Source: an uncultured bacterium (GTDB lineage Bacteria; Patescibacteriota; Gracilibacteria; BD1-5; UBA6164). From it: a stretch of DNA of 64,000 nucleotides. The translations under genes and the position numbers were made by a program. Positions within the stretch are counted from its first letter, which is position 1, and each line of letters begins with the position of its first letter. This document shows, in pieces, positions 1-64,000 of the stretch. The notes beneath the pieces were generated by a model. It was not told the DNA's origin. It searched no databases and saw only the letters and a list, made by a program, of their open reading frames with translations. The DNA is taken from NCBI GenBank assembly GCA_963922865.1, contig CAWUJK010000003.1, positions 1,947-65,946 of the forward strand, written 5' to 3'.

Positions 1-1386
1 GTTTTTGAATTATATATTGAAAAGAAAAATCTCGAGCAAGAAACCATAGCTTTGAAAAAACTTAAAAAGAATTTCGTAGTAAAAAAGAAAATATTAAATG
101 ATAAAAAAGAATTTAAAAAGAAAATACTGGAAATATCAAAAGGAAAAGACCTACTTTACAAAAAATATATAAAGCAAAAAGTTGATGTTGAAAAATCATT
201 GAGAATAAAAGCTTTTTCCGAAAGAGTTAAATTTTATAATACTTCTAAAAAACTATTACATAAATCAGGTTGTAAATTTATTGATGTATCTAAAAATACT
301 CCTAAAGTTAGAACTTTATCAGATAAATGTTATAATCTAAACAAAATAATATCTTTGGAAGCAAGACTTGAAGAAAATAAATCAAAAAACTCTAACAAAA
401 AGACTTACAACATATTTTCTTGGCCAGTTTTCCCAAAACAGTGAATATCTTCTTATTTTCATGATGTTGAATACAAAAAAGAGTTTGGTTCTGAGCACAA
501 GTGAGTAGACTTAATAGTTCCACAATGAACTAATATAGTAGCACCTAGTGATGCTTATGTAATACATCTAAAAGCACCTGTTGATGACTCTTATTCATAT
601 ATAGCACTTAAACACTCTGATTGAGATGTAACTATTTATTGACATGTAAGTGAAATTTTTGTTGATAAATATGATTATATAAAAGCTTGAGAAGTTTTTG
701 CTAAGACATGATGAACATTTTGAACATTTTGAGCATGATATATTACAACTTGAGCTCATTTACATTTTGAAGTTTTGAAAAATAAAATAAATGTTGACCC
801 TTTGAAATATATGGATTTAAGTTATCTTAACTTTAAAGATTTACCCGAATACTATAAACTGGACTTTTTAATAGATTATAGAAATAGAACTTGAAACGAA
901 TATACAAAAAAGCGAGATTTTACTTGAAAAATATTTAGTCTAGACTGAGCAAGTGAGATAGAAAGGCAAAGATCCCTTTTGGAAAAATATGCAAGGAGTG
1001 ATTTTGCTGATTGGAATATGTGGGTTGAAGAATCTCTTAGATGGAATGTAGATCCTACATTTATGATGTGTATTTGATTAGCTGAAAGTTGACTTTGAAG
1101 AAATTTAAAAACTTCGTATAATGTATGAAATGTATGAAATGTTGACTCTGGTTGAACTTGGACTATGAGTTCTCCTAGACAATGAATATGGTGGATGTGA
1201 CATACATTAAATAATAAATACCTGAGAAACTATAATAAAATATCTAGGTTAAGTTGATACTGAAGAAGATGAAATGATCCTATATACGCATCTGATCCTA
1301 TACATTGGCATAGAAATGTAGTTAAATGTATGTCAACTATTAAAGGGCAATATATACCAGATGACTATAACTTTAGAACATATTAA
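1..1386 (+). CDS. M23 (LytM-type) metallopeptidase with C-terminal glucosaminidase-like domain; the 5' end lies outside the window
   Basis: Frame 1 is open from nt 1 to TAA 1384-1386 once TGA is read as sense. The translation contains SEHKGVDLIVPQGTNIVAP and GAHLHFEV (M23 signature). The C-terminus reads CIGLAESGLGRNLKTSYNVGNVGN, which is muramidase/glucosaminidase-like. Confidence 0.8.
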
Positions 1387-1409
1387 ACTTATTAAATAAT
1401 AAAATAAAA

Positions 1410-2750
1410 ATGAAAAAAATAGTTAGTTATAAAGATATCTTTTCTAAATATAAAAAAAGTGATAAAAAAGCATTTCATTGGCTTTTTTCCACAATATTAA
1501 ATTTCGTTATTCCTATTGCTTTTTGATATTATTTTTTTGATAAATCTATAATTTTACTTGTTTTATCTATATTATTTGCTTCTTTTGCTTTGGTTAAACT
1601 TTTTACCATTCAACACGACTGTGGACATTATTCATTTTTTAAAACCAAAAAATATAATGAATATTGTTGAAAAATAATTAGTTTATTTACATTAACTCCA
1701 TATTCATACTGGAAACATCATCATAATAAGCACCATAGCCTTTTGTGAAATCTAGACTCTAGATGAGAAGATTGATTTGTTTGGGGTTATTATTGGACTT
1801 TGACAGTTGAAGAGTATAAAAAACTAAGTTTAGTAAATAAAATTTTATATATACTATATCATTATCCACTTTTTTTGGTATTTGTACTACCTATACTAAA
1901 TTTTTTAATAGCCAATCGTATACCTTTTTGATGAAATAAAAATAGAAAAGATGCGCTTAGTATAATCTATAATACTATTTTTTGTTTTGTTTTTTATTTA
2001 TCGGTTTATTTTTTAGTTTGAAATGAAGTTTTTTGGTATTTTATAGTGCCTATACTTTGTTGTTCTGCTATAATATGATGATGGCTATTTTTTGTTCAAC
2101 ATAACCATGAAGATGCTTATTGGGAGAGAAGTGAAAATTATAACTTTAATAAAGCTTCTTTAGAATGAAGTTCTTATTATGTTTTACCTAAATGGCTACA
2201 TTATATGACTTGAAATATTTCTTATCATCATATACATCACTATTCTGCCATGATACCAAGCTACAGTTTAGCAAAAGTTTACGAGCAATACGATTGCTTT
2301 AGATCAAAATGAATTACTATAAGTGATAGCTTTTCATATGTAAACCTTTGCTTATGGGATGAAAATAAAAATAAACTAGTATCTTTGAAACATTTTAGAT
2401 ATGTAACTTTGCTTTTATATACTTTTTTCTTATTTTTGTCTTTTAGTGCTTGATATTTAGATTTAAATATTTTTATACCTATAGTAGTCGCAATACTTAT
2501 ATTTGTATCATCTTTTCCGTTTATTTTTAAAAAAGAATCCTTGAAACCAACTTTTCTTTTATGGTTTACATGAGCTAATTTTCTATATTTTTATTTTATA
2601 TGAAACAATATCATGGATTTAGGTTATATTTATTATTTTTATACCATAGCTTTTACTTTGCTTTTCTTATTTTTTTATTTTTATAATATAATTTTGAAAA
2701 ATATATATTCTAGTGTAGAAAAACTTAAGTATATAAAAAAAATTTTTTAA
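1410..2750 (+). CDS. membrane fatty-acid desaturase family protein (446 aa)
   Basis: ATG 1410 to TAA 2748. Three histidine boxes are present: HDCGH, HHNKHH and HHIHH. The intervening segments are hydrophobic. Confidence 0.85.
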
Positions 2751-2953
2751 GCTCTTTTAAGATTTTATAAAAAATATGTAGAATATATTTAAATAAAATA
2801 AATTAAAAGAGTTAATCATGCTTTCAGTAATAAATTTACTATTTTGCAAAAAATTTGTCTTTATGCTAACATTGATATTAGAAAACTTACTGCAATTTAG
2901 GGGGTGAACTTATACAAATTTTTGCACAAAAAAAATATATATGTTAAAATATA

Positions 2954-3895
2954 ATGGTAATTTACTCTTATATTTTTTTTATGAGAAAACTTATTTATTT
3001 ACTTTTGTTTATTAATTTTAGCCAAACTTACGCTGTAGGCAGTTCAAAACAATTGGAAAAAACAAACGAAAACTCCAATTTTATACTAAACTTTTTTAGC
3101 GCAGAAATGTTTATAAATTTAGCTTTTGCTATTATTGTTGTTGTGCTAACATTTGCAATTATAAAGATAGTTGATATTAAAATAGCTAGTTTTATTGAGT
3201 CCTCTTGAAACTGAGAAAACAGGGAAGAATTATCTTGAGTTTTAAGAAGAACAGCACATATATCTATTTTAGCAGTATGATTTTCTATTACTCTTTGAAT
3301 ACTTTGAGTTGACATGTGAATATTTATGTGATGACTGTGATTTTGACTATGATTTACTCTAAAAATATTTTTATCAAATTTTATAGCTTGAGTTATAATG
3401 GTAACACAATGAAGCTACCATAATGGAGACTTAATAGAAATAGATTGAAAATCATGAAGTATCAGGAAAATTAATGCTCTTTTTACAGAAGTAGAACAAT
3501 TTGATTGAATAATATTTTTTGTTCCAAATGTAAAATTTCTTGAAAATAATGTTGAAAATTATCATAGAAACGCAACTAGGAGGATAGAAATAGAAGTTTG
3601 AGTTGATTATGATACAGATATAGTTAAATCTAAAAAGGTTATTTTTCAAGTTTTACAAAATTTTCCACAAATATTAAAATCACCAGATCCTGAAATATTT
3701 ATCACAAAATTTGATAGTAGTTCAATTAATCTAAGTATAAGGTTTTGGATAGATAGTAAAAATTGAAATTACTTTGTCACCAAATCCAATGTTACTGAAA
3801 CTATAAATCTAGCTTTCAAGCAAGCTGGTATAACTATCCCTTTCCCTCAAGTAACACTTAGCAATAGGAACGATTTTTCGGTAAAACATAGCTAA
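2954..3895 (+). CDS. mscS: small-conductance mechanosensitive channel (MscS family)
   Basis: The ORF is continuous under code 25. The translation GLGFTLKIFLSNFIAGVIMVTQGSYHNGDLIEIDGKSGSIRKINALFTEVEQFDGIIFFVPN matches the MscS pore helix plus beta domain. An alternative in-frame start is ATG 2981. Confidence 0.8.
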
Positions 3896-4028
3896 TATTA
3901 TCATATATATTTTTTAAAAAACATATAAATAACATAATTTTTATAGTAAAATATATTTGATTTTTATAGTAAATACTCTATAATTTTTATAGAGTATTTT
4001 TGTTTATTTTAAAGTATAATATATAAAT

Positions 4029-6534: not shown

Positions 6535-7608
6535 TTATAGGAGAATTATATTTATATTTTTTTCATAATCTTTTCTTATGGAACTTATAAATGTTTGATA
6601 TCATTTTATACTTTTTAAAATTATATTTTTATGCTTTTCATCAATTTCACTAAGTAAATCATCTATTACTAAAATAGGCTTTTGTTTTAAAAATTGTTCT
6701 ATAAAACTTATTTCTAAAAGCTTCATTCATATAATTACTGATTTTACTTCTCATCTACTGGCAAATTCCACTAAAGATATTTTGTTTACATATATTTCAA
6801 AATCATCATTGTGTGGTCACATGCTTGTTGATCAAATGATTATATCTTTTTTTAAATTTTTTTCTAAATTTTCTAATATTTGTTTTTGTATATATTCTAT
6901 TTTTTCTTTTTTATTAAGCTTTTTATTGTTTAATATTTTTGTTTTATACTCAAAATTAATACTTGAAATTTTATTTTCGAAATAAACATCAAAAGTTGAT
7001 ATGTTTTCTTTGAAAAAATTTGTTATTCATATTCTATAATTGTATATTATGCTAGCTTGTTTTACAAATTGTTTATCCCAAAATTCTAACTCTGTTTTTT
7101 GAGAATTTCATTCTCTTATATTTTTCAAAATCTTATTTCTTGAGCTAAGTATTTTTTTGTATTTGCTTAATATTTCTTTATAATTTTCAAATACTCTTAT
7201 TAAAATATCATCTAAAAAGTCCCTTCTTAAATTAGGAGATAAATACATTATATTCATCATTATAGGAGAGAAAAATACTATTTTTTCTATTTTTGAGAAT
7301 AATTTTTTTTTAGCTACTTTTTTCCAGTTGTATTTATATATCTTTTTTTTACTTGTTTTTTCGTATGATAGGCTGATATTGTTTCATAATATATCCTCTA
7401 TTTCTATATACAATACTTCTTTGTTAAATTTTACTAAGTTATCAAAATCTATTTTTGATATGTTGGACAAATGCAGTAGAGATATCGCTTCTAGTATATT
7501 TGTTTTTCATTTACCATTTTCTCATATTATTGCATTTATTTTTTCATCAAAAAAAAACTGTGAATCATCAAAATTTCTAAAATTTTTTAATTTTAGTTTT
7601 TTTATCAT
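6535..7608 (-). CDS. recF: DNA replication and repair protein RecF (357 aa)
   Basis: The whole frame was scanned and has no TAA or TAG. The N-terminus reads MIKKLKLKNFRNFDD...GENGKGKTNILEAISLL (Walker A, with both G residues encoded by TGA). The length is typical of RecF. Confidence 0.9.
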
Positions 7609-8881: not shown

Positions 8882-9547
8882 ATGAAAAAAATATTATTTT
8901 TATTCTCAGTATTGTTTTTGCTTTTTTCTTGTTGAGAAAAAGAGTTTAACACCAAAATTTCTAAAAAAATTAATTCTTGAGAAAGCATAAAAATATTAGC
9001 TCTTTGAGATTCCATAACTTATGGTTATAAAGTTGATAAAGATAAATCATATCCTTCTCAATTAGAAAAAAAACTAAAAGATAACAACTATGATTATAAT
9101 ATAAAAAATTATTGAATTAACTGAGATAGCTCAAAATGATTGCTTGATAGATTAGATGATATCTTAAAAAATAACACAGATGCTGATATAGCTATTTTAA
9201 CTATTGGATGAAATGACGGATTAAGAAAAAGATCTATTTTAGAGATGAAAAAAAATATTTTGGCTATCATTGATAAGCTTGAACAAAAAGATATTGTAGT
9301 GGTTTTTTGTTGAATGAAGCTGCCTATACTTTTTGGTTGGGATTACTCCAATAGTTTTAATGATGTCTATGAAAATATATCTGATCAAAAGCAGGTTTAT
9401 TTTTACCCGTATTTTCTTGAATGAATTTGACTTAGTGTAGAAAATAATATGCCAGATAATATACACCCAACAGCTAAAGGTTATACTATTATTAGTAATA
9501 ATTTATATGAATTTTTAGATGAAAGTTGATTGCTTATAAAAAAATAG
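8882..9547 (+). CDS. SGNH/GDSL hydrolase (TesA-like lipase/esterase), lipoprotein
   Basis: The lipobox is LFLLFSC. The SGNH blocks are present: LALGDSITYGY, TIGGNDG and DNIHPT. Confidence 0.8.
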
Positions 9548-11722: not shown

Positions 11723-11797
11723 TGGAGGTGCCTAGCGGAATTGAACCGCTGTAAATGGTGTTGCAGACCATTGTATAAACCACTCTACCAAGGCACC
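11723..11797 (-). tRNA. trnC: tRNA-Cys (GCA), CCA encoded
   Basis: I folded the cloverleaf by hand. The acceptor stem is GGTGCCT/AGGCACC and the anticodon arm is ATGGT-CTGCAAC-ACCAT. The T arm is AGCGG-TTCAATT-CCGCT. The U73 discriminator is typical of tRNA-Cys. Confidence 0.9.
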
Positions 11798-12794: not shown

Positions 12795-14597
12795 ATGCTA
12801 AGAACTCATAAATGTGATGAACTATCCAAAAAAAATATTTGAGAAAAAGTAACCCTATCAGGTTGGGTAAGTAATAGAAGAGATCATTGATGAATAATTT
12901 TTATAGACCTAAGAGATAGATATTGATTAACTCAAATCGTTTTTGATCCAGTAGATAATAAAGAAACACATAAAATAGCAGATAGCTTTAGAAGTGAATT
13001 TGTTATAAAAGCTATATGAACAGTAAGAGCAAGACCAGAATGACAGGCTAATCCAAATATGCGTACATGAGAAATAGAAATAATTATTGATAATTCAGTA
13101 GAACTTTTATCCAAATCAAAAACACCCCCATTTGAAATTGATTGACACGGTGAACTAGCTTGAGAAGAGATAAGATATAAACATAGATATATTGATTTGA
13201 GAAGACCAAAAGCGCTAGAAAACATTAAATTTAGATCAAAGTTTTTAAATCTTACAAGAAACTGGTTTTTAAATAGAGAATTTTTAGATGTACAAACACC
13301 AATATTTACAGTTAGCTCACCAGAATGAGCAAGAGATTTTGTTATACCATCTAGATTACACCCAGGTAAATTTTATGCCCTACCACAAGCACCACAGCAA
13401 TATAAACAGTTATTAATGGTATGAGCAATAGATAAGTATTTTCAAATAGCACCATGTTTTAGAGATGAAGACCCTAGAGCTGATAGACACGCGTGTGAAT
13501 TTTATCAAATAGATTGTGAAATGTCATTTGTGCAACAAGAAGATATTTTCAAATTAGTAGAAGATTATTTTTTTCATATAATACCAGAGCTTAGCACAAA
13601 AAAAATCATGGATAATAAGTTTTATAGCATGAGTTTTAAACAATCAATGGAAACATACGGTGTAGATAAACCAGATTTAAGATATGATATGAAACTAATA
13701 GATGTAGCATCTATTTTTGCTAAATCAACAAATGAAATATTTTCAAAAATAGCCAATGACACACAAAACAATAGAATAAAAGCATTAAAAGTTCAAAAAT
13801 GAGATGAAATATTTTCTAAATCACAAATGAAAAATTTTGAGAAATATGTTAGACAATTCTGAGCACAATGACTTGGTTATTTTCAAATGACAGAAGAATG
13901 ACTCAAATGACCATTAAATAAGTTTTTTTCTCAAGAAGACCTAAAAGAAATAATAAAAACAACCCAACTTGAAATTGGAGATGTAGTATTTTTTTGAGCC
14001 TGAGATAAACAAACAGTGCTCAACTATATGTGAAAATTTAGGATACATCTAGCAGAGTTAATTGACGAAATAAAATCTTGACAATTTATAGACAAGAACA
14101 TGTTATCGCTTTGCTGGATAACTGATTTCCCAATGTTTGAAGAAAATGAAATAACAAAAAAAATAGATTTTTGACATAACCCTTTTTCTATGCCAAAATG
14201 ATGAATCAAAGAATTTGAAAAAGAAAATTTACTAGAAATAAATTCAGTACAATACGATTTAGCATGTAATTGATTTGAGATATTATCATGATCAATTAGA
14301 AATCATGATATAGATTCTTTAGTTAAAGCTTTTGAAAAAGTAGGTAGAACAGAAGAAGAAGTTAAAGAAAAATTTTGAGCAATGTATGAAGCATTTCAAT
14401 ATTGAGTACCACCACACTGATGATTTGCAATATGAATGGATAGACTAATAATGATATTAAAAGATGAAGACAATATAAGAGAAATTTATGCTTTTCCTAA
14501 ATCAGGAAAAGCTCAAGATGCTATGATGAACGCTCCAGCAATAATAGAAGAAAATCAATTAAAAGAATTAAGTATAGAAACAACACAAGAAAATTAA
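12795..14597 (+). CDS. aspS: aspartyl-tRNA synthetase, bacterial type (600 aa)
   Basis: Class II motifs are present: [35 protein letters not shown] and GGFAIGMDRLIM. It joins track ORF 13521..13802 in the same frame. Confidence 0.95.
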
Positions 14598-16527: not shown

Positions 16528-17919
16528 ATGCTTTGAAAAATAACAATTATAGGTAGGCCAAATGTAGGTAAATCAAGTTTTTTTAATATGTACACATGAC
16601 ATAAAATAGCAATTATTGATGATGAATCTTGAACTACACGCGATATATCAGAATTTGAATATAGTGATAAACAAAATGATTTAAACTATATTTTATCTGA
16701 TTCATGATGACTTGATTTTGAAAATAAAAACGATGAAGTAGCCGAAGACATTATAATAAAAACAAAGCAAGCAATAAATGATTCAGATTTATTAGTTTGG
16801 CTTATAGAATATGATAAATTTACACAACTTGATGAAAAAATACTTAAACTATTAAAAAAGAAAAATTTTAATAATTATATACTGCTTGCCAATAAAGCTG
16901 ATAATGATTCAAAAATAATGGAATCTTGGAATTTATCAGGTTTATGAGAATTAGAATTTTTTCCTATATCAGTATCTCATAATTCTTGAATAAGCAAAGT
17001 AAAAAACTTTGTAGCAAAACATCTAAAAAAACTAGGATTAAATTATAAAATAGAAGATTTAGATGATAGTTTTGTAAAATTAGCAATGATAGGTAGACCA
17101 AATGTGGGGAAGAGTAGTATGATAAATTCTATTGTTGGTTTTGATAGGGTGATGGTAAAAGACTTAGCATGAACAACGCGTGATAGTATTGATACAAAAT
17201 TTCAGTATTCAAGTAAAAATGAGGTACAAAGCACAAACTTTGTTTTAATTGATACAGCTGGAATCAGAAGACTTAGTAAAGTTTGAACTAGAAATGTAGA
17301 AAACTGGTCTGTGATGAGAAGTCAAAGAGCTCTCAAAAGAGCAGATATAGTTGCTGTTGTAATAGACTGATATGAATGAGTTGTTTCTCAAGACTTATCT
17401 ATAATTAATCAAGTTTTAGAAGAAAATAAATGACTTATAATAGTTGTTAATAAATGGGATAAAGTTTTACAAAAACCTTGAATAAACAAAGAAAATATGA
17501 TGAACAGATATATTGACTATCTTCAAGAAAAAATAGAATTTATACCGTGGGTATCTGTTATATTTACTTCAGCAAAAGATAATAAAAGAGTAAATGAAAT
17601 TTTACAAAGAGCCAAAGAAATAAAACAAGAAAGACACAAAAGAGTAAAAACAGCAATATTAAATAATTTTTTAGAACAAGCTACTTATAAACATCCACCA
17701 ACTTGAAATAAAAAATCACATTCTCCGAAAATATATTATTCAACCCAAGCAGATACAAATCCACCAAAATTTGTTTTTTCAGTAAGCAACCCAGATCATT
17801 TTCATTTTTCATATAAAAGATATCTTGAAAATAGAATAAGAGACAATTTTTGATTTGAAGGTACACCTATAATTATTGAATATAGATGAAGATGAAAAAA
17901 TAAATGAAAAACTAAATAA
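16528..17919 (+). CDS. der: ribosome-associated GTPase Der/EngA (463 aa)
   Basis: There are two GTPase domains (GRPNVGKSS twice, SGTTRD/AGTTRD, NKAD/NKWD) and a KH-like C-terminus. The last 38 codons lie in the first 179-bp repeat copy. Confidence 0.95.
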
Positions 17920-20640: not shown

Positions 20641-20686
20641 ATTTAGCAAATAAAAAAGACTTCTTAGTCTTTTTTATTTGCTAAAT
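20641..20686 (-). terminator. strong intrinsic terminator (20-bp perfect stem) overlapping the last codons of the upstream gene
   Basis: The arms are atttagcaaataaaaaagac / gtcttttttatttgctaaat with a 6-nt loop. A U-run follows on the minus strand. Confidence 0.75.
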
Positions 20687-22944
20687 AAAGCAGGTGGAGA
20701 TATTTGTATATTTGGATTGTATTTTATAACTACTGGATATTTTTTTCCTGTTTTTGAATCTATTTGAACATCTCATCACTCTATTCATCTTCTTAGGTAA
20801 TTTAGATCATATTTTTGAGCTTCATCTAAACTACAGCTATTATTACTATATCAAAGATAAAATGGACATTTAGGAGTTTCTAATCTAGAACCTCATATAG
20901 TATTTTCAGAAAATAGTGAACCATTAATATATAATTGTTTTTTCAATCTATCATAATCTCAACCATTATTTGGTGAAATTTCTCACCAATTTGAATTATA
21001 ACTTATAGCTGATTTATCAGTATAAATTATTGATTTTATTTTTTCTACATTAGGATCTATGTATAAATTTCAACCATTTCATTTATCATCTTTTAACACA
21101 ATTAATCATCATAAATTCAAATTTCATTTTACATAAGCATTAGCTCATAAAATAACAATAGTCTTGTTGTCTCATAAATCTCAGTAAAAATTTTTTATTT
21201 TTTTTGTATGATTCCTATAGTCATAAAACTTTATTCTTCAATTCATCAAATCTATTCAATCTTTATCTGTTTTGATATTTTTTATTTTTTCTATAGCATT
21301 TTTTCTTATATCTTTTTTTAGACTAGATTTAGTTATTTCTCATGCTATATTTTTTACATCTTTATTATCTTGTTCATTATTCAAATCTCTTTGTTTTGAT
21401 TTATCTATATTTGTATTTCAGTAAACTTTAATTCCAAAATTATTTTGAGTATTTGTTTCTCATATACTACTTGATCTGTATAAAACAGATTTTCATTCTA
21501 TTTTATATCATATCCAAGATCTTAAATAAACATTTTTTATGTCATCAATAAATCATTTTGATCATGATTTTAATGTAAATAAACTTTTTATTTTATAATT
21601 TGTTGAATTTACAAAACCATTAACAAAACTATTCAAGCTATTTAATATACTTTTTTCTACTGGATTAATTCTAGCTTTTCAGTCAAATTCATCTTTTTTT
21701 TCTCAGTATTTTTGCAAATATATATATTTTGTAGCTTTTGAAACAAGATTATCACTTCAATATTTTGTTACATTTATACTACCAGATTGATTAGCTCATT
21801 CAACTAATCATTTATCTTGATTTCATGAGAAATTTAGATTGTATAATGGTTTAAAATTAAATTTTATATTAGATCATCACAAAACTAGATTTTGTCTATT
21901 TCATATATTTCAATTTATATCAACTTTTACATTATTTATAGTAAATTTATTTCAGTGTATGGTAGGAGAATATATTTTAAAGTTAAAAGGGTACTCTCCG
22001 TTAGATGATTTTAGAGAATCAAAATTGTTATTTTTTGTTAGTTTATTTGTATAATTTTTATCATTTGGAGTACTTAAGTATATTCAATCTCATATATTAC
22101 TATATTGGTTTCTTCTCAATTTATTTTCAACATCAAATTTAAAATCGATAGTTCTTTTTATAGCTATAGCTGGTATTATTTGATTTCAATAGATATCTTT
22201 AATTATTGCTTTTAACTCATGTACTATTCAGTTTGCTGATTTTCATGAAGTAAAGTCTATAGCTGAATTAAATTCTAGTTTTCCTAGTTTATTACTATTA
22301 GAATATACATTGTATTTATAGGTTTTTGGTAATCAAGCTATACAGTTTTCAGCTTCATCACAAACTTTATTTAATTCTAAAGAATATTCTCTATAAGATC
22401 AACTTGTCCTATCATTATCAACTTTTTTTATGTTTATATTGAATGATTTACCAGATAAATTTATATTATCCATTTTGTTTTTATTATCAAAATTTTCTAT
22501 TTTAGCTTTAAAAACTCATACTCAAGACTGATTTATTCAATAATTTATAGCAACATTAAATTTATCTATTGCCAAAACATTTCATCATAAGCTAGAAGCC
22601 TTTATTGAAGGTGGATCATCATCTCTTCTTTTACAATAAACTTTGTACTGACTTCATAAGTTAATTATCTTTGATGCGAATCTTTTATCAGGACAATTAA
22701 AATTATATCATTTGTTATAAGGTCAATACCAATCTCAAGAGTAATAACCATGATATTCGCATCTAAAACTTCATGAACTAGGTTTATTATTTGATATTGA
22801 ACTAGAGATAGCTTTTTGACCACTATTATTATTTGTAGTGTGACACGCTACATTATTTTTATTCCAACTTTTCCATAAAGCAAAGCTTTGATTTGGTAAA
22901 AACACTAAAACTATCATGACAATTAAACATATTTTTTTATTCAT
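20674..22944 (-). CDS. large secreted hypothetical protein (756 aa)
   Basis: The N-terminus MNKKICLIVMIVLVFLPNQSFA looks like a signal peptide. The N-terminal region is Cys-rich and the rest is Asn/Gly/Lys-rich. Start and stop are in the same frame under code 25. Confidence 0.7.
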
Positions 22945-26328: not shown

Positions 26329-27267
26329 ATGCAAAATATTGATTTTAAAAATGTTAGTTGATTAGAAATTTCTTTATTGTATAAATGCAATGTAGGATGT
26401 GAGTTTTGTCACTTGTGAAATTTGAAAGAAGAACATGAACAAAGGTTATCCAAAGAGCAAGTATTTGATATATTAAAAAATTGATATGAACAATGAAAAA
26501 GATCAGTAATTTTTACTTGATGAGAGCCTACTTTGGAAGTAAACCTGCCAATTTATATACAAAAATCTAAAGATTTATGATTCCAACATATAAGAGTCCA
26601 CTCTAATGGTTTTGCTTTTCAAAATTATAGTTTTGTAAAAAATTTACATGATAAATGATTGACCTGAGTTACTATATCAGTTCATTGATACAAAATTATT
26701 CATGATTGTATAACAAAAACACCATGAAGCTTTGATGTTATATTTAAAAGTTTTATAAATTTTGAAAAAATAATTCTTAAAGATGATAGTTTTTCTGTTG
26801 ATACAAATACTATTATTTGCAGAAAAAATTATAAGTATTTAAAACAGCTTTTGATTTTTTTAATGAAATTTAGTATAAAAAGAAGAATGTTTACCTATAC
26901 ATTTAATACCGTCTTGTATCATGAGTTTTGAGATCTAAAAAGTATTATAGTTTCTTATGAAGAGTTGAAAAATCCCATAAATAAATTGCTTGAATTTTGT
27001 GAATTTAAGAAAATAAAAGATTTTGTATTAGATTCTATACCTTATTGTTTGATAAATGAAAAATATTGGCATTTTATAGAAGAAAATTATCTACCAGATA
27101 AACATTTTTATTTACTTGATTATTATGATTGAAATGATAATACTTACAATGATGGAAAAATAAAGTATATTGAATGTAGAGATTGTAAAAAAGATAAACA
27201 ATGTACATGATTTTCTGAGGATAATAATTTACTTTATTGAAAAATGAATTTTAATATTTTAACTTAG
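26329..27267 (+). CDS. hxsC: radical SAM maturase, HxsC-like by position (312 aa)
   Basis: The frame was scanned. The triad is CNVGCEFC. The SAM motif TGGEP is encoded as ACT TGA TGA GAG CCT at 26515-26529. The C-terminal tail is CRDCKKDKQC. Confidence 0.75.
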
Positions 27268-30690: not shown

Positions 30691-30724
30691 CAATAAACTA
30701 AATCTTTGGAAATATATTACTTAT

Positions 30725-35700: not shown

Positions 35701-35704
35701 AAAT

Positions 35705-37807: not shown

Positions 37808-37814
37808 ATATATT

Positions 37815-39839
37815 ATGAAATATATTTGAGCTAACATTTATTCAACTACACATCTTTGGAGCGCTTGTTATTTAGATGAAAAAGGTATTTTGAAAGCCAT
37901 TGAACTTGAAAGATTAGATAGATATAAAAATTCTCCTAATCTTTCTAGTTTTTGATTGATTCCTAAACTAGATAATTATTTTAGAAAAAAAATAATTGAT
38001 TATTTTAGTATTAAATGAGAATATAAATCTATTAATTTTGATAAAAAAAATATAATTGAAAAGCATCACTATTTACATGCTTGTTCAGTATATTATTCAA
38101 ATAATATAGAAAAAGCTGCTGTCTTATGTATGGATAGAAATGGTTATGACTTGAATTTTTGAAATCAATTTCAAACTATATGGAAAGCAAAAGATATGCA
38201 TCTAGAACTTAAATATTCTACTCAAATTGATTCTCAACTTGATAGATGAATATGATTTGCTTACTATATTATTTCTGAGTTTTTAAAACTTTGAGAATGA
38301 TCAGTAATGTGATTATCTTCTTATTGAGATAAAAATATTTATAAAAATATAAAAATTTATGAATATAGGGATAATGGAGTTTATTTTAATAAAAAATTTT
38401 TACAAAGAACTATATATGATTTTTCAAATAATTCTACTTTTTTTAAGAGATATGATTCTTTTGATGAAATGTACTGAAATAGAGATATTATTTTTGAAAA
38501 TATAAAAAATATTTTTGGACTTAGTAATCAAGATTTAGAATTTGCTAAAAATAATATTGTAAATTCCAAATTTTCACATATTGCTGCACTACTTCAATAT
38601 CAAACAGAGGAAGCTATTTTATATTTAGCTAAAAAAGCATATAAATTATACCCATCAAAAAATCTTTGTTTAGCTTGATGAGTGGCATTAAATATTTTAG
38701 CAAATACTAGAATATTAAAAGAAACTAAGTTTGAAAATATTTTTATATCACCAGTATCTGAAGATATATGATTATCACTATGAGCTTTTTATCATTTATA
38801 TCACATTCAAGAAAAAAATATTACTAGAGTATTTTTAGAAAAAACTTGATATTGAAATAGTTATTCTAAAAGTATGATTTTAAAAACTTTGGATGAATTT
38901 TGAGATTATTTAACATATGAAAAACTAACACAGCATGATATTTATGAAAAAACTGCAAATAAACTTATGGAAAATAAAGTTTTATGATGGTTTCAGTGAT
39001 GAAGTGAATTTTGACCAAGAGCTTTGGGTAATAGATCAATTATAGCATCACCTTCTTGTCTAAAAATTAAAAATAAGATTAACAAAATAAAATCAAGAGA
39101 ACTTTGGAGACCTCTGGCTCCATCTATTTTAGAAGATAGTATAAAAGATTATTTTGATATAGATTTTTTATCCCCGTTTATGAGTTTTTCCTGAAATATC
39201 AAAAAATCAAAGCTGTGATTTATAGATTGAGTAACCCATATAGATAATACTTCTAGATATCAAAGTGTAGGGGAGGTAAATAATAAAAAATATTATGATT
39301 TAATTAAAAAATTTAAAGAGAAATCTTGAATACCTATTATTATAAATACTTCTTTTAATGTCTCTCGCGAACCTATAGTTGAAACTCCTATAGACGCTCT
39401 GAAAATGTTTTTATCCACAGATATAGATTATTTAATATTGGATAATTTTTTTATAAAAAAGAGCAAAAAAACTGATAAATTTAGATTTAACTATGAAAAT
39501 ATAAGATTAAAAAGGAATCTAGTATTTTCTAAGAATAAACAAGCTATAATAAATAGAAAATACCTAAACAATAAATTTGAAAAATTATTCAAAAATTATG
39601 ATTTTAAAATTTATAACAATTTTTATGATGAAAGCATATCTTTTTTTATAGATGGTTTTAAATATATTCTTGAATTTTTTTCCTCAAGTAGTAATTATTT
39701 ACATATTGAGAAAAAAACTTGATTAATTAAGTTATGAAGATATTCTATAAATGATGATAAAATTATAAATATCATTTATAAAAAAAGTGATATTATAGAT
39801 TTTATGTTTTCAAATGATTATGTAATAAAAGATTATTAA
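37815..39839 (+). CDS. NodU/CmcH-family carbamoyltransferase (674 aa)
   Basis: The motifs are HHYLHACSVYY, LAGGVALN, GGSEFGPRALGNRSII, RPLAPSIL, HIDNTSRYQSV and NTSFNVSREPIVETP. Confidence 0.85.
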
Positions 39840-41221
39840 TGATATCCCAAATATTTTATTCTCAAGTATTATTTCCTTCAATTACTTATGATAATTGGAT
39901 TGATTTTTGAAATATGAAATTAAAAAAAATTGAAGAATTATGTTTTTGAAAAATAAAAACCACTTTTATATGTAAAGAGAATTCAAATTACTTTCATGTG
40001 TATTTTCTTTATAAGGATCTAACTTTAAAAGAAAATATAAATACAAAAGAATGGTATGTTTATTGAGATGAATCACCTTTAGTAAAAGATGTTATTTCTA
40101 GAATAAATAATGGAGTAAAGAATCAAACAGAATTCAGTTTTTTTAAAGATAAAAAATTTTACGACAAGATACCTTTTTGAGTTGTTTTAACAATAACCAG
40201 TAAGTGTAATATATTTTGTAATTATTGTTTTAATGATTATGATTACCCCTTGAAAGATAGAAACCTAAGAAAAGGTCTATCTTGAAAAGATTATAAAAAA
40301 ATTATAGACATATTGTATGAATCTTGAACAAGGGATATAATTTTAACTTGATGAGAGCCCTTCATAGCACCTTATTTTTGGGAGTTGTTAGATTATTTAA
40401 AAGAAAAAAATATTTTTACTAGAGTTAATACAAACTGAACATTGTTATCTGATGAAACTTTAAAAAGACTAAACGATAATTATGTAGTTAATTTAATGGT
40501 ATCTATACATGAATTCAATCAAAAAGATTATTTTAAAGTAAATGAAGTCTGAGCTATAAACATACAATGACTAAAATCACTTAAAAATTTTGAAGATAAG
40601 TTTTATAAAAAAATTGTAGAATTAAGAAAAATAAAAAATTATAAAAACCTTAGTTTGGATATTATGACAATACTTGATACTAAAAATATATTAAATTTAG
40701 AGAAAATATATGAGTTTATACTTAGTAACTTTGAGGTTGAAGATTGGCATTTTTTTAGATTGTATTCTACTTGAACTACTTCCTGAATATCAAGACCAAT
40801 GATTTCTTTAGCTATTGCTAAATTATACAAATTGAATAAAATCTATAAAAGGAATTTCAAAATTGTTGATAGTGTTCCTTATTGTGCTAGTAGCAATCCT
40901 GAGATAGCAAGTAAAGTAATAGATTGAGAATTATCTGAAAATCACAATGTAAAAACTATTATAACAACAGACTGATTTATACAAATAATGTCAGCTTTTG
41001 ATACTAATTTGGGTAATATACTTGAAGAGGGAATAGAAAATATATGGAGATGAAATTTTGTTCAAAAAATGCTAAATCATTGATTTTTACCAAAACAATG
41101 TCAAGATTGTCTTTACAAAGACAGTTGTAGATGAGGTTCCAGGATGGATGCTAATATATATAATTGAAGTTATGATGCTTGGGACCCATTATGAGATGTA
41201 GATAATAAAGTTATTTGATAA
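39839..41221 (+). CDS. radical SAM / SPASM-type protein with N-terminal extension (460 aa)
   Basis: The motifs are CNIFCNYC, TGGEP and the C-terminal CQDCLYKDSCRGG. The start overlaps the upstream stop (TAATG). Confidence 0.8.
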
Positions 41222-41306: not shown

Positions 41307-42599
41307 ATGGAAAAAGATAAATTTGTAAATATGATAAAAAAAACTAAAAATCCTTTTTTTATAAAAGATATTTTAATTATGTATTTAAAAAAATCTATAT
41401 TTTTAAAAAGAATTTATAAAAATATAGATTTTTTGTGAGTAAAACCGGAAAGTGAAAAAAAACTTGATGAAACTATAAATGATATTTCAAAAATTTCAGA
41501 TATTTTTTTAGATGAAAAATCTAGAGACATTTACTATAAAAAAAGATCTCCATGATGTACTTTTTGTACTTTTTGAAAATGATGTACGGTTGTTTTAAGC
41601 TATAAATGTCATAGAGATTGTTTTTTTTGTTATGAAGAAACCCCTCTAGATCCTAAAGTAGTTATTGATCCTTATGATAAAGAAGATATGAGTAAAATTT
41701 ATTCTATAATAGACTCTTCTTTTTCTAATCCAACCAATAAAACTTTGGCTATAACTTGATGAGAACCATTTTTATTTAAGGATAAGGTTTATGAAATTTT
41801 AGAATATGTAAACTCTAAATACCCTTGAAAACATACTAGAATATATACAACAGGAGATATAATGAATGATGAAATACTTACTAAACTTAAGAGTCTAGAA
41901 CTTGATGAGATAAGATATAGTATAAAACCTTGAGAAGAACCTAATTTAAAAATATATGCTTTAACTAAAAAATATATACCTACAGTTATGATTGAAATGC
42001 CTATTCAACCATTTTCAAAAGATTATATGATAGATATAATGAAAAAAATAGATGAGCACTGAAGTATAGATTGATTTAATTTGAATGAGCTTACCTTCAA
42101 TAACTTGAATCCAGAAAAATACAAAGAAGTATGATACAAATTAGATATACCCAAGTGAGATTCAAACTATATTTATCATAGATATTATGATGTTTCAAAA
42201 ATAGAAATTTGAGTCTATGGTAGTAAGATACTTTGTCTAGAACTTATAAAATATTTTTCAAAAAGAAAATCTAGTTTTTTTATGCATTATTGTGATTTAG
42301 ATACTGTTTCAACTCATCAATATATTTATAAAAAAAATAATGCCATTTCTATGAAACATCCATACTCTGAGATAACCAGATTTGCACTTCATAAGGTCTT
42401 AAGAGCATATTCTTGTCTTGAAAAAATAAAAGATTTATTCAAAGAAAATAACATAAATGAATTTTATACAAACTCCAATTATATAGAAACTAGTGTATCT
42501 CATAAAGAGTTACTTAAATCTACTGGATGTATTTTAGCTATAATTTATATGCATTTTGATTATAGTTACGCAGTTGATTTTGAAATTATAAATATTTAA
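41307..42599 (+). CDS. radical SAM protein (430 aa)
   Basis: The motifs are CHRDCFFC, preceded by CTFCTFGKGC, and ITGGEPF. It joins track ORF 42282..42599. Confidence 0.75.
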
Positions 42600-43793: not shown

Positions 43794-44640
43794 TATATGA
43801 TATTTTTGTAAGAAAGATTGTATTTTTTGCTCAGAATGATGATATTGAAAACGAAATGTATTAGAGTTGAAGGATTTTAAAAAAATTATTATAAAAAAAA
43901 AATTTACAAAAGTAGTTTTAACTTGATGAGAACCTATTTTAAACCCAAATTTGATAGAGTACATAAATTTTTGTAAAGAAAATAATATTTATGTTTCACT
44001 CGTTACTGCATTTGAACCCTATTTGAGTGAAAATTTTATAGATTCTATTATTAATAGTTGATTAGATGAATTAATGCTTTCTATACAATGACCAGAAAAA
44101 ATACATGATTTCTTAATTAAACAAAAATGATCTTTTAAAAGTCAAATTTTTTTGTTAAACTATTTAAAGTATAGACCAAATAAATTCAGAGTCATTTTAC
44201 ATACTAATATAAACAAATTCAATTATAAAGTTTTGCCTTTTTTTATAAACAAAATGTTTTTTTTATTTCCTTATATCTCGGTTTATCATATTCAGGCTTT
44301 AGAATATGATTGAAGCGCAATTAAAAATAAAACAATTCTTTTTGATAAATATACAACACTTTTCTCTGTTTTTTTTAGTAAAGTTTCCAATATTAAAAAT
44401 TTAGATAGAATTAAGTTTTGAAGAATACCATATTGTGTTGTGGATCAAAAATATAGGTTTTTGATTTGAAATACACCTAAAACATTTAATAAGAGAGATT
44501 GATACTATAAACAAGATATGGTATATAAAGAATGAATATATGATGAAAAGTGTCATGGATGTAAATATTATTATTCATGTGATAAATTTACAAATGTTTA
44601 TGTTGAAAAATTTTGAGATGAAGAAATACAATTAATATAA
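43777..44640 (+). CDS. radical SAM protein (287 aa)
   Basis: CKKDCIFC begins 10 codons after the ATG. The other motifs are TGGEP and the tail KCHGCKYYYSC. It overlaps the upstream gene by 17 nt. Confidence 0.75.
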
Positions 44641-44646: not shown

Positions 44647-45630
44647 ATGAATTATAAAAGACTTGAAATTTATTTATGATGGACATGTAATAATAAATGT
44701 CTATTTTGTATTGAAATGGCTACTATGGATAAAATGTGGAATAAAAAAGTAAGTGAAGCAGAAATACTTAAAAAACTTTTGAAATATAAGAAGCTATGAT
44801 ATAATCATGTCACATATTTATGATGAGAACCTTTTATCCAAGACAACTTTCTTTTTGCCTTAAAAACTTGAAAAAAACTTTGATACACTATAATGGTTAC
44901 AACAAATGGAAATTTAATTCAATATCACAAAGCTGCCAAAAAATATCTTTCATATATAGATGAACTTATAATATCCATTCCAATAATAGATCAAAAATTA
45001 CAATTAAAAATTAACAATACAAAATCTATTATTGATTTTAATAAGGTTTTTCAGAATATAGATAAGTATTGGAATTGAATTTTTTTGAAAGTAAATACTG
45101 TTATGAATCCTTTAAATATAGATCATATATATGATATAGTAAAATTTATACATAATTATGGTGTTAAAGAATTATCTTTAACATACCCTGATATAGATAC
45201 TTATAAATACAGTGATGAGCATATAAAAAAATATTTGATATTAAGGTATGAAGAAGTAATTAGAAAAATAGAAAAATCTTTTGTTTTTTCATTAAAATCA
45301 TGAATAAATATAAAACTAACTGATGTACCTTTCTGCTTTTTACCTAGTAAAAATTGGATAAAGCATACAGACGATTATGATTATGACTGAAGAACTAAAA
45401 TTATGTATCATTGATGAGAATTTAAAAGAAAATGAGCACTAGATAGGTTGAGTAATTTAGAGTCAGTTCTTGATAAAAATGAAGATGATAATGCGAAAGA
45501 AGTTATAAACCCTAGAATGAGAAAGTATTTAAAAGAGTGTTACAAATGTAAATATTTATGAAAATGTTGGTGAGTAGCGGATAGTTATGATCATTTTTAC
45601 AAGGATACTAAAATTAAACCCATTTTATAA
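44647..45630 (+). CDS. radical SAM protein (327 aa)
   Basis: The motifs are CNNKCLFC, LGGEP and the tail ECYKCKYLGKC. It merges track ORFs 44893 and 45085. Confidence 0.8.
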
Positions 45631-45633: not shown

Positions 45634-46629
45634 ATGTCTGAAATTGAAAATAAATTTGAACATTTTATAAATGAAATTATAAGAATCAATTATAAATGTA
45701 ATTGGAAATGTAATTTTTGTAATGTATGACTTGTAAATAACTATTGAGATAAAGATATAAATCACAAAGAAGTAATTTATAAGATTTTGACTTTGGGTAA
45801 GAAATATTCTTTAAAAGAGAAGTCGAATTTAGTATTATCTTTTTCATGATGAGAACCCACTTTGAATAAAAATTTATTTAATTACATAAAATTAGCAAAA
45901 AATATATGAATTTGAAGAATACAAATTCAGACTAACTGAAGTTTACTTTATTTAAATCACTCCCTTTATGATAAATTATTTTCTGCGTGATTGAATGAGA
46001 TTTTTTTAGCACAACATTCAGAAAATTTAGAAACAAATATGGAAATGTGATGTTATTATGATTTCAATGATTTCTTAAGTTGGTTTAATTATGTAAGAAA
46101 TAGTAGAAAAAATATAAAGATTTATTTAAATATAGTTATTACGAAAATTAATATAGAGTTTTTATATAAGTTTATAATTAAACTTATAGATATATGATTT
46201 ATAAAACATATATGAAATAAAATATCTTTTTGATTTTGTCAACCAAACTGATATGCTTGGGATAATAAGGAAGATACCTTACTTGTTTTTGATGATTATC
46301 AGATTAATTTGATTAATAAAGTAATAAATTATTGTAAAAGTAGGGATATTTATTTGGATTTTCATTATACTTCACCTCCAATTTGTATATTACAAAACCC
46401 TGAATATAATCTTGAATATAAAAAGCTTAAGATTTTAAAAAATAATAAAAATATAAGCACTTTTAATCTAAATAGTTTCAAGTTTTTATGGAAAGAAAAA
46501 AGTAAGTTAAGTATTTGTAAGACTTGTAGGTATGATAATTATTGTCTTTGATTCTACAAAAATTGGATAAAATACATATGAAAAGACATATTAATACAGA
46601 GGGTTAAAGACTTTTTATCAAAATATTAG
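45634..46629 (+). CDS. radical SAM protein (331 aa)
   Basis: The motifs are CNWKCNFC, SGGEP and the tail ICKTCRYDNYC. Confidence 0.8.
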
Positions 46630-53355: not shown

Positions 53356-54300
53356 ATGGCAAATATATGATACATACAAGTAAACAGGCATTGCAATAAT
53401 TGATGCCATTTTTGTAGTAACCCAAGTAATGGAAATAATATTAGCTATAATCGATGAATAGAGCTTATAGATGATTTTATAGAAAAAAAATACAATTGAA
53501 TAATATTTACATGATGAGAACCAACATTATCACCAGACCTAGCAAAATGGATAGAGTATGCCAACCAAAAAGGCATACACTCTAGAATGATATCAAATGG
53601 AATGATGTGTGCAAACCCAGATTTTATACAAAAATTAGCAGATTCTTGACTAGAATTAATACACTTTTCAGTTTACTCTTGTTATGAAAAAGTACATGAT
53701 TTTTTAACAGATACCCCATGAAGTTGGAAAAAACTTATGATGAGTATAACAAACGCACTAAACTCTTGAATAAGAGTACAAATAAATACAGTTATAAATC
53801 ATTATAATGAAACACACCTTGATAAAACTATTAAATTTCTATCAAAAACATTCCCTCCAATAAAACATTTTGTTTGGAATAACTTAGATCCAGAAATGAT
53901 GAGAAAAACAGATATAGCACGGTCTACTTTACCAAATTTTGATAATTTTAAACCATCTTTGAATAGAGCTATGGATTATCTTGATTCACTGTGAAAAACA
54001 TATAGAGCAGAAAAAATGCCACTTTGTTATATAAGATGACATGAATGGTGTTCTACAGAAACAAGAAAAATAGTAAAAGATGAGGAAAGAATAGTACATT
54101 TTCTAGATTTCAGAGAAACTATTCATGAAGTAGAGTGGTGACATGAAAAATTACCTGAATGTAGTGAATGTGATCTGAACAGTATATGTTCTTGAGTTTA
54201 TGAATATGAAAGATATTATAATTTTGTAAAAGTATACCCACAAAAGCTAGAAAAAAAGGAAAAACAAGAAATTATTGATAAAATAAAATGAACTTTTTAG
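53356..54300 (+). CDS. radical SAM protein (314 aa)
   Basis: The motifs are CNNGCHFC, TGGEP and the tail ECSECDLNSIC. Confidence 0.8.
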
Positions 54301-58544: not shown

Positions 58545-58548
58545 AAAA

Positions 58549-61493: not shown

Positions 61494-62327
61494 TTATTTT
61501 AGAAATTCATTTATCAAATTTATGATTTCTTGAGTTTTATCATGAGTATCAATTTTTCTTCATTTTAGAAAAATATCTCTTATTTGTTTATTTGTTAATA
61601 CAGTTTCTTCATCCCAAGAAGGCCGCCAATCATCTTCTATTCAAATATTATTATATCTTTTGTGATGAGTTTCTATATCAATGAAAGATTTAGGAAATTC
61701 TAAATATGAATATATAAATTTATTATCATAAGTATATAGCTTCCCATTTGGATACTGCTTTTTTATTTTATGTATTATTTTTAAAATAGTCTCTATTTGT
61801 TTTTTGTTATAATAACTTATATAAAACCCAATACCTTTATCATTTATCATATATCTTCCTGTGGAATCATACTCTATTTTTATCCCATACTTTTCGCCCA
61901 ATCTTATAAATTCAAGTTCATAATTTATTTTTTCTTTTTCGATATTTTTTTTAATATTAGCAATTATATCCTTTTTCATGTTAAGAGTATCTTTTATCTC
62001 TTCCAATTCATAATCTATACTATGACCTTTTTCTATTTGTTTTAATATTTTTTCAAATAAATAAACTAATCTTGTGTTTTGGTGTTTATTTAATTTTCTA
62101 TTTAAAAAATCTCTATAAGGAGAATCTAGTTTTGATAAAACATCTAGTTGATTTTGTAAAATATTTCTTTTATCACAATTATTTCCATCTTTTATTTTTT
62201 TTATTAAAAGATTTTTGGAACGCTGTAATATTGACAGAGATCAATTACTATTTTTTTCCTTTAAATCAAGATTTTCAGCAGAAGCCAAAATATCTGAGTT
62301 ACATGATATACTTTCTATGTTTCACAT
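61494..62327 (-). CDS. hypothetical protein, paralog B (277 aa)
   Basis: I checked the upstream and downstream extensions of track ORF 61641..62006 codon by codon. The N-terminus MGNIESISCNSDILASAENLDLKEKNSNGSLS is homologous to paralog A. Confidence 0.65.
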
Positions 62328-63130: not shown

Positions 63131-63238
63131 CCAAAAAATATATTTAATTTTTGAGTTTTTGAGCGGCTATATTCTTGAATAATATTTAAAACATCCAAAA
63201 CCGCTTTCAAAAATGAAAAAATTAAATATATTTTTTGG
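63131..63238. repeat. ~108-nt hairpin element (22-bp arms), homologous to 60329-60442 in the opposite orientation
   Basis: The arms are ccaaaaaatatatttaattttt / aaaaattaaatatattttttgg. Confidence 0.75.
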
Positions 63239-63497
63239 GTTTTGGGGGTTTCTAATTTTTTGTTAAATAAAAAATTGAGTACATATTTTTAAATAAACCT
63301 CTTTCAAAAAAAGAAAAAAATTAAATATATTTTTTGGATTTTGAGTTTTTCTAATTTTTTGTTAACCAAAGAATTTAATTACATATTTTTAGACAAACCG
63401 CTTTCAAAAAAGAGAAAATTAAATATATTTTTTGGATTTTGAGGTTGTTTAATTTCCTATTAAACAAAAGAAGATAAGTATATATTTTTAAATAAAA
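63201..63497. repeat. three tandem ~97-100-bp repeats
   Basis: The units start at 63201, 63298 and 63398. Each begins cc(g/t)ctttcaaaaa...attaaatatattttttgg...ttaa...atatttttaaataaa. The landmark attaaatatattttttgg recurs at 63221, 63320 and 63418. Confidence 0.8.
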
Positions 63498-63516
63498 TTG
63501 GAAAAAAAGAAAAAAA

Positions 63517-63539
63517 AAGTAATATCATATTACTTTTTT
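63517..63539 (+). terminator. small hairpin plus T-run after the tandem repeats
   Basis: The stem is aagtaatat / atattactt, followed by ttttt. Confidence 0.45.
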
Positions 63540-63560
63540 AAAAACCATATTTTAATAAAC

Positions 63561-64000
63561 ATGAAAAACCTAGTAATAATTTGAGGAAGTGATGGTTTTG
63601 GTAGCTGGCTTGCTTGGTATATCAAAAAAAATTTTAAAGACAATATAAACCTAACCATCACCTGAAGAAATCAAAGCAAACTTGAAAAAACCTCAAAAAA
63701 AATTTGATGTAATTTTTCAACCAACAATACAGAAACTATAAAAAAATCAGATATAACTGTATTTTGTGTACCCGTATCAAAAACAGAAGAAATCATAGAA
63801 AAATATGCACCACAACTTAAAAAATGAAGCGTAGTTTTGGATGTAACATCTATAAAAAAATGACCCTCACTAGCATTAAAAAAATTTTCACCCAAATGAG
63901 TGCTTATTATCCCAACCCACCCTATGTTTTGACCATTTGTATCAACAATATCATGACAAATAATAGTTTTAACAGCTGAAAAAGAAACACAAAAAGACCC
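63561..64000 (+). CDS. tyrA: prephenate dehydrogenase (TyrA family), 3' end outside the window
   Basis: The motifs are MKNLVIIGGSDGFGSW (Rossmann), VPVS and THPMFGP. Confidence 0.7.

Follow-up and report, generated by a model that had tools for sequence, protein, structure and literature searches.

The 64,000-nucleotide stretch of DNA analyzed here (positions 1–64000, hereafter the window) lies on contig CAWUJK010000003.1 of an uncultured bacterium (GenBank assembly GCA_963922865.1), and the subject of this analysis is how two codons, UGA and CGG, are read in its genes and in the genome from which it derives. The source genome (G000) is 1.24 Mb in 54 contigs with a guanine-plus-cytosine (GC) content of 24%, and is 93% complete. 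The nearest orthologues of its aspartate–tRNA ligase AspS (about 75–80% identity) bear the title Candidatus Gracilibacteria, which supports the lineage proposed in the original prediction (Gracilibacteria or Absconditabacteria), lineage being judged here from record titles. The comparisons drew on two complete genomes from its GTDB family: G068 (1.18 Mb, 25% GC) and G034 (1.01 Mb, 35% GC).

The window contains 2 open reading frames (ORFs) of at least 150 amino acids under translation table 11 and 58 under table 25, the latter being tightly packed and mostly co-oriented. With a simple non-overlapping caller, the share of the window in ORFs of at least 100 amino acids rises from 7.3% (table 11) to 91.3% (58 ORFs) once TGA is taken as a sense codon; genome-wide, coding density in ORFs of at least 120 amino acids rises from 4.9% to 83% in the same comparison. 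The original prediction, made from the letters alone, that conserved genes are fragmented by the standard code is thus borne out by the 2 versus 58 ORFs of the window. In-frame TGA is present in all 58 window ORFs, with 815 occurrences versus 232 GGN codons, and genome-wide 15,762 in-frame TGAs are spread over 940 of 948 ORFs. It is also true, as had been claimed, that all the genes end in TAA or TAG (43 and 14, respectively), which follows from how the ORFs were called; independent support for the gene ends is provided by RecF, Der and AspS, whose matches reach the last positions of the NCBIfam profiles.

The genes RecF, Der, AspS, LysS and HxsB, named under code 25, each score above their own NCBIfam cut-off, and several contain TGA within the motifs listed in the original prediction. 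The main test gene, aspS (12795–14597, forward strand), carries 30 in-frame TGAs and matches NF001750 at 766.8 bits (cut-off 443). Its motif 3, GGFAIG, is encoded as TGA TGA TTT GCA ATA TGA at 14418–14435 (forward strand); as originally read, three TGAs lie in frame there, and all three columns are invariant Gly in 16 standard-code orthologues. The der/engA gene (16528–17919, forward strand; 18 in-frame TGAs; TIGR03594, 424.8 bits, cut-off 306.7) carries the proposed G2 motif E-S-(TGA)-T-T-R-D, with an in-frame TGA at the Gly position (16630–16632, forward strand). In recF (6535–7608, reverse strand; TIGR00611, 250.7 bits, cut-off 172), the Walker A motif g-E-N-G-K-g-K-T at 7501–7524 (reverse strand) has TGA at two of its three glycines, the first and the third; the middle one is GGT, so the claim that TGA serves there holds for those two only. 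Similarly, the G-g-N-D-G block of an SGNH hydrolase (9206–9220, forward strand; GGA TGA AAT GAC GGA) has TGA at one of three glycines, the other two being GGA, although it had been listed as a TGA-encoded motif.

The GGEP motif of radical-SAM proteins had been described as TGA TGA GA(A/G) CC in at least seven genes. TGATGAGARCC occurs exactly 7 times in the window, versus 0.02 times expected by chance, and all seven copies sit in ORFs also bearing a CxxxCxxC motif. They lie on the forward strand at 26518–26529 (TGA TGA GAG CCT, in frame in the ORF at 26329–27267), 40349–40360 (TGA TGA GAG CCC), 41757–41768 (TGA TGA GAA CCA), 43924–43935 and 44821–44832 (both TGA TGA GAA CCT), 45847–45858 (TGA TGA GAA CCC) and 53512–53523 (TGA TGA GAA CCA).

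As an open frame cannot separate code 25 (UGA as glycine) from code 4 (UGA as tryptophan), the residue itself was tested in five ways. When ten ORFs were translated both ways, code 25 scored higher than code 4 in all 14 Pfam domain matches. Because tryptophan is a heavily penalized residue, AspS was also scored with every one of the 20 amino acids placed at TGA. For its three Pfam domains together, Gly gives 495 bits and is the best of the 20 by 50 bits, followed by Ser (445) and Ala (444); Trp (399) is among the four worst. In alignments to proteins of solved structure with the codons masked, 21 of 29 TGA positions of AspS are opposite Gly in the aspartyl-tRNA synthetase of P. aeruginosa, and 10 of 14 TGA positions of Der are opposite Gly in B. 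subtilis EngA, with Trp opposite none in either case.

For column comparison, 80 AspS loci were fetched from GTDB genomes. Sixteen of them are from standard-code organisms (Campylobacter, Peribacteria-type and others), defined by zero in-frame TGA and a frame fully open under table 11, and 58 are from recoded relatives. In the 16 standard-code orthologues, Gly fills 76% of the cells in the 30 TGA columns, compared with a 6.8% background, and Trp never occurs; 24 of the 30 columns have a Gly majority, and Gly is invariant in 15. Across the 58 recoded relatives, these columns contain 421 TGA and 981 GGN cells, and TGA is never found in the columns where the window has TGG. Genome-wide composition points in the same direction: Gly would amount to 1.5% of residues from GGN alone and 6.1% from GGN plus TGA, whereas TGG plus TGA would give an implausible 5.2% Trp.

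Codon pairs were then scored between reciprocal-best orthologues of G000 and either G068 or G034, each tested codon being compared with the empirical substitution profile of every amino acid. TGA, CGG and CGA were masked before alignment, so that the alignments are unbiased by the codons under test. Over 6,526 TGA sites, Gly is favored by 9,026 bits over Ser and by 28,778 bits over Trp; compared with G034, Gly is favored by 11,725 bits over Ser. The control codons were assigned correctly (CGT and AGG to Arg, TGG to Trp and GGT to Gly).

Of all glycine codons, TGA makes up 75% in the genome and 78% in the window. In aspS of the recoded relatives, its share ranges from 0 to 88% (median 33%) and declines with rising GC content (Spearman −0.71), a correlation that is descriptive only because kin are not independent; the share in G000 is at the high end among the relatives. 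TGA usage differs greatly even between close relatives, dropping as GC content rises. Three of these (L003, L008 and L029; about 78% AspS identity) have no TGA in aspS, and equally distant peers carry 12–36. Reversion to the standard code was considered for these three and rejected, as their neighboring genes need UGA as a sense codon (coverage 0.45–0.60 under code 11 versus 0.86 under code 25). A glycine-rich 756-amino-acid ORF of the window (20674–22944, reverse strand), for which no Pfam or NCBIfam match was found, includes 52 in-frame TGAs, about 7% of its codons.

The decoding machinery is consistent with these tallies. ARAGORN finds one transfer RNA (tRNA) with anticodon UCA in G000 (C32:12499–12577), which is 79 nt long; its acceptor stem has 7 bp and its variable arm is short. 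It bears the full glycine set of identity elements (G1:C72, C2:G71, G3:C70 and U73), as the glycine-identity criteria are given by Shulgina and Eddy (2021; PMC8629427), and its acceptor stem GCGGG/CCCGC and U73 match those of tRNA-Gly(UCC), its nearest paralogue in the genome. The search for such a tRNA, suggested along with the original prediction, thus gave a positive result, and a separate tRNA-Trp(CCA) with A1:U72 and G73 is present. Homologues of tRNA(UCA) with 84–99% identity and the same length and anticodon are found in 22 of 22 sampled genomes of the order and show compensatory changes in the anticodon stem. A BLAST search with tRNA(UCA) gave no match outside the order, which reflects a limit of sensitivity and is not evidence of absence. 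In three relatives of the same order (loci L108, L109 and L110, in G171, G129 and G088, respectively), tRNA(UCA) and tRNA-Gly(GCC) are neighbors, about 25 nt apart at most. This adjacency is consistent with a possible origin by duplication of a glycine tRNA gene.

The other suggested search concerned release factor 2 (RF2), encoded by prfB. A single class-I release factor is found in G000, prfA (428 bits, cut-off 423), and the best prfB match in this 93% complete assembly is the prfA gene itself (237 bits, cut-off 370). The same result, prfA without a detectable prfB, was obtained for the two complete genomes of the family. Of 201 genomes sampled from the class, 146 give a prfB match that exceeds the cut-off, compared with none of the 22 from the same order, complete G068 and G034 included. 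Likewise, RF2 was not found in any of 22 sampled genomes of family f13, presumably an Absconditabacteria-like branch, which surely has its own diverged tRNA(UCA). In the proposed mechanism, RF2 would have been lost, leaving release factor 1 (RF1) to terminate translation at UAA and UAG, and with RF2 lost nothing would terminate at UGA. UGA would be decoded by the dedicated tRNA(UCA), which resembles tRNA-Gly(UCC) of the same genome, and strong AT pressure would have made UGA the main glycine codon. The match of codon to residue, the tRNA gene with its identity elements and the unsuccessful search for RF2 are direct observations, and we infer that tRNA(UCA) is charged by glycyl-tRNA synthetase (GlyRS) and acts in this manner in vivo.

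Taken together, UGA is almost certainly read as glycine in the genome of the window, and each of the checks suggested with the original prediction (bit scores, residues facing UGA, tRNA and release factor) favors this assignment; the residues facing UGA are mostly Gly and never Trp in both solved structures and standard-code orthologues. Some points weigh on the other side. About a quarter of the TGA columns are not Gly in homologues, as expected at variable positions; U34 of tRNA(UCA) could in principle read UGG as well (PMC8629427); and, because the assembly is 93% complete, the absence of RF2 from G000 rests partly on the complete relatives. The assignment is made at the level of sequence, where nothing substantive appears to oppose it.

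Two other explanations of the in-frame TGAs were weighed. That UGA encodes tryptophan, as under code 4 in Mycoplasma, Spiroplasma and some insect endosymbionts, would suit the 24% GC content, the use of UGA as sense and the missing RF2, all of which are common to code-4 organisms, and yet the residue tallies refute it: no TGA column faces Trp in the structures or the standard-code orthologues, Trp falls in the bottom four of the 20 residues when AspS is scanned and lies 28,778 bits below Gly in likelihood, it would have to reach 5.2% of residues, and TGA never replaces TGG in the relatives. In addition, tRNA(UCA) carries glycine rather than tryptophan identity elements, and the genome has a separate tRNA-Trp(CCA). 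Code 4 is exceedingly improbable. Even less credible is the view that UGA has not been reassigned and that its in-frame occurrences reflect selenocysteine, programmed readthrough, pseudogenes or assembly errors. ARAGORN does label tRNA(UCA) as 'SeC', a call made from the anticodon alone. Selenocysteine decoding, which goes with selA, selB, a long-arm tRNA-Sec and rare UGA, is ruled out by the failure to find selA in G000, by selB matches that stay below the cut-off, by the 79-nt tRNA with its 7-bp acceptor stem and short variable arm and by the sheer number of TGAs, 15,762 in 940 of 948 ORFs; this view is also countered by TGA positions that are kept, or alternate with GGN, in dozens of independent assemblies. 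Glycine thus stands as the meaning of UGA, which is the already known code 25, and the finding as given is ordinary.

The second codon is CGG. An odd tRNA(CCG), the rarity of CGG, and the fact that CGG never faces an Arg codon in orthologues raise the question of its meaning. CGG is one of the three rarest codons of G000 (62 of 343,245). At 13 sites aligned with G068, CGG of G000 is opposite TGG 7 times, CGG 4 times, Tyr once, Leu once and Arg never; compared with G034, it is opposite TGG at 15 of 18 sites and again never opposite Arg. Altogether, 21 CGG sites have an orthologue. One or more relatives have TGG at 16 of these, no relative has an Arg codon at any of them, and G034 has TGG at each of the four sites where G000 and G068 share CGG. 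In the two codon-pair tests, Trp is favored over Arg for CGG by 154 bits and 141 bits, and CGA stays Arg. For comparison, CGA, CGT, AGA and AGG of G000 face Arg at roughly 50–67% of aligned sites.

More distant proteins provide further support. With CGG masked, the sequence YSYM-x-A aligns with YSYKWA of oligopeptidase A (family M3), and NPF-x-L with SQDWV of B. subtilis Rel, in both cases placing CGG opposite a conserved Trp in a solved structure. RKST-x-SFL aligns in the same way with RRAIWDLL, RRLLWDTV, RRSIWDLL and RRMLWNVI of ABCA nucleotide-binding domains. By contrast, CGG is used 349 times in G034, and of 175 such sites aligned with G000, 120 have Arg or Lys in the latter. Within a single orthologous radical-SAM gene, CGG of family f3 and genus g2 lies mostly at Arg, Lys or polar columns, and CGG of G000 and G164 at Trp or hydrophobic columns.

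Three CGG codons lie in frame in the window. The one at 53920–53922 (forward strand; codon 189 of the radical-SAM gene at 53356–54300) probably encodes Trp: its orthologues have TGG in three cases, including a genome of the same genus, Leu in four, Met in one and Tyr in one, with Arg or Lys in none. The one at 32040–32042 (forward strand), codon 9 of the HemN-like radical-SAM gene at 32016–33335, also probably encodes Trp, which is found at this position in the adjacent paralogue at 30683–32014 (KLDF[x]KF versus KLNL[W]KY). The third, at 61623–61625 (reverse strand), is codon 235 of the ORF at 61494–62327. For the ORFs at 32016–33335 and 61494–62327, no orthologues were found among 40 sampled relatives of the order.

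The candidate decoder of CGG is a tRNA with anticodon CCG (C4:48413–48489) that ARAGORN calls Arg. It has A1:U72 and G73, like tRNA-Trp, whereas A73 is found in every genuine Arg tRNA of G000, G068 and G034. It is conserved in 10 genomes of the family, which keep the anticodon, A1:U72 and G73 and show compensatory changes in the stems. Its D-loop, AAUUAGAA, is unusual in being without the usual G18-G19, and its T-loop, UGCAAUU, has G at the place of the conserved U55; both odd features are kept in the 10 genomes (homologues L172–L180). A BLAST search with this tRNA gave no match outside the family, which again reflects limited sensitivity and does not show absence. In G000 and G068 this tRNA adjoins the same conserved gene, and is not at the locus of tRNA-Arg(UCG) of G034. 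The latter genome has an ordinary tRNA-Arg(UCG) with A73 and is without tRNA(CCG), and conversely neither tRNA-Arg(UCG) nor an Arg-type tRNA(CCG) was detected in G000 or complete G068 with ARAGORN as sole detector.

The remaining Arg codons seem to be unaffected. The 96 CGA codons of G000 still face Arg in orthologues, and CGA, CGU, CGC, AGA and AGG remain arginine, only CGG being changed. The only Arg tRNA found for the CGN box has anticodon GCG; a CGA decoder, with anticodon UCG or ACG/ICG, was found by ARAGORN in neither G000 nor complete G068. At a lowered ARAGORN threshold, 'tcg' hits appear in both genomes, and were rejected as implausible, being oddly long or overlapping other tRNAs.

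In all likelihood, CGG is read as tryptophan in G000, with the atypical tRNA(CCG) as its putative decoder in a second layer of recoding, and code 25 is very probably not the whole code of this genome, as CGG would be Trp instead of Arg. The alternative is plain table 25, under which UGA is glycine, CGG is still arginine or effectively unassigned, and the CGG/TGG pairs are AT-driven nonsynonymous C-to-T changes, the two codons being one transition apart. Several observations lean that way and against tryptophan. As the D-loop of tRNA(CCG) is without G18-G19, position 20 is not assignable with confidence and may still be A, the main determinant for arginyl-tRNA synthetase (ArgRS), so that the published criterion "G73 and not A20" is only half matched, by G73; A/G1:U72 counts there as supporting evidence. 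The distances of this tRNA from the tRNAs for Trp, Arg, Met and Gln are much alike and point to no single origin. In the window, CGG at 61623–61625 faces Lys in a 38%-identical paralogue, the only comparison for this site, and the tryptophan assignment depends on 21–23 informative sites only.

Plain table 25 is nevertheless unlikely. At none of the 21 sites does a relative have an Arg codon, whereas CGA, CGT, AGA and AGG pair with Arg at roughly 50–67% of theirs. Also against it are the four sites at which G000 and G068 have CGG and G034 has TGG, and the three at which CGG meets a Trp conserved in distant standard-code proteins. G73 of tRNA(CCG) is like that of tRNA-Trp, in contrast to A73 in the genuine Arg tRNAs, and G034, which has tRNA-Arg(UCG) and no tRNA(CCG), is the genome in which CGG pairs with Arg or Lys (120 of 175 sites). 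With CGG as tryptophan in G000, the boundary between the arginine and tryptophan meanings may well run between genera of one Gracilibacteria family. If so, the complete genomes of this family would show a codon box being split, atop an older capture of a stop codon.

Other features of the window touch these subjects less directly. The region at 23157–54300 contains seventeen ORFs with the CxxxCxxC radical-SAM motif, together with two carbamoyltransferase paralogues (35630–39839), a GFO/IDH/MocA oxidoreductase, an APH-like kinase and a PPDK_N protein; the gene at 23957–25426 matches the HxsB equivalog TIGR03978 at 487 bits (cut-off 370). GC skew is strongly positive (0.16–0.18) over 24001–48000, within which the radical-SAM block is co-oriented, and near zero in the rest of the window. 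The only tRNA gene of the window is tRNA-Cys(GCA) (11723–11797, reverse strand). The whole assembly has 30 tRNA genes, versus 34–37 in the complete relatives, with Val, Phe, Gly(GCC) and Arg(UCU) among those missing. A 74-nt 'tRNA-Stop(tta)' reported by ARAGORN at position 71054 of G068 (in L114) is probably a false positive, its acceptor strands UAAGUUA and CUAUAAC pairing poorly.

The main consequence of these readings is practical, namely a correct translation table for annotation. Annotation under table 11 or table 4 would be wrong at more than 800 positions of the window; table 25 is right for UGA but would yield Arg at CGG codons that the cell very probably reads as Trp, three of them in the window and about 65 in the genome; some fall on conserved Trp positions, for example in the YSY-x-W motif of the M3 peptidase. 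Interpretation of the radical-SAM/His-Xaa-Ser island and of Gly-rich precursor peptides likewise depends on the right code. G000 also illustrates how far a captured stop codon can reach, with UGA encoding three-quarters of glycines, and the related complete genomes of the family, differing in the meaning of CGG, would provide material for the study of sense-codon change.

Both assignments have precedents. NCBI code 25, with UGA as Gly in SR1 and Gracilibacteria, was described previously (Campbell et al., 2013; Rinke et al., 2013; as cited in PMC8629427), and peptide evidence was reported for another BD1-5 bacterium (Hanke et al., 2014; PMC4032931). Like those organisms, G000 has UGA as a sense codon for Gly, a tRNA(UCA) with G1:C72, C2:G71, G3:C70 and U73, and no detectable RF2, and it is a small low-GC candidate-phyla-radiation (CPR) genome whose nearest relatives are named Gracilibacteria. 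For UGA nothing differs in kind, UGA being the dominant Gly codon in G000 (75%), whereas CGG departs from table 25. Code 4 in Mycoplasmatales, Entomoplasmatales and some insect endosymbionts is similar to the case of UGA in the capture of a stop codon, the AT-rich reduced genome and the loss of RF2, but differs in that the residue here is Gly, not Trp, and that tRNA(UCA) resembles tRNA-Gly rather than being a duplicate of tRNA-Trp.

For CGG, Shulgina and Eddy (2021; PMC8629427) reported reassignment of both CGA and CGG to Trp in Absconditabacteria and predicted that of CGG to Trp in "some Gracilibacteria". As both UGA=Gly and CGG=Trp have been described or predicted before, the scientific surprise is modest. 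Common to Absconditabacteria and G000 are rare CGG, low GC content, Trp columns at the reassigned codons and a tRNA with G73 and A1:U72, as well as an Arg(GCG) tRNA serving CGU and CGC, as in other CPR bacteria. Unlike in Absconditabacteria, only CGG is changed in G000, and CGA continues to pair with Arg. Reliance on both tRNA(UCG) and tRNA(CCG) is described for Absconditabacteria, whereas no tRNA(UCG) was found in G000 or G068, and here both states of CGG would occur in one GTDB family, Arg in G034 and very probably Trp in G000 and G068. Five of the fetched AspS loci (L065, L073, L076, L079 and L080; about 54% AspS identity) have CGA and CGG at conserved Trp columns, a pattern that matches the published Absconditabacteria reassignment, and one of them, L076, is titled Absconditabacterales.

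The CGG reassignments of Anaerococcus and RFN20 Bacilli (Shulgina and Eddy, 2021) resemble that of G000 in having tRNA(CCG) and lacking tRNA(UCG), in low GC content and in very rare CGG. A dedicated tRNA(CCG) in combination with a missing tRNA(UCG) would allow CGG to change its meaning independently of CGA. The phylum is different, however, and those Firmicutes read CGA by tRNA-Arg(ICG), whereas the only CGN-box Arg tRNA found in G000 is GCG, leaving CGA without an obvious decoder. Compared with these known systems, what the analysis contributes for G000 is direct site-by-site support for CGG as Trp, its restriction to CGG and its tRNA correlate, together with the apparent presence of both CGG states within one family, where they seem to track GC content.

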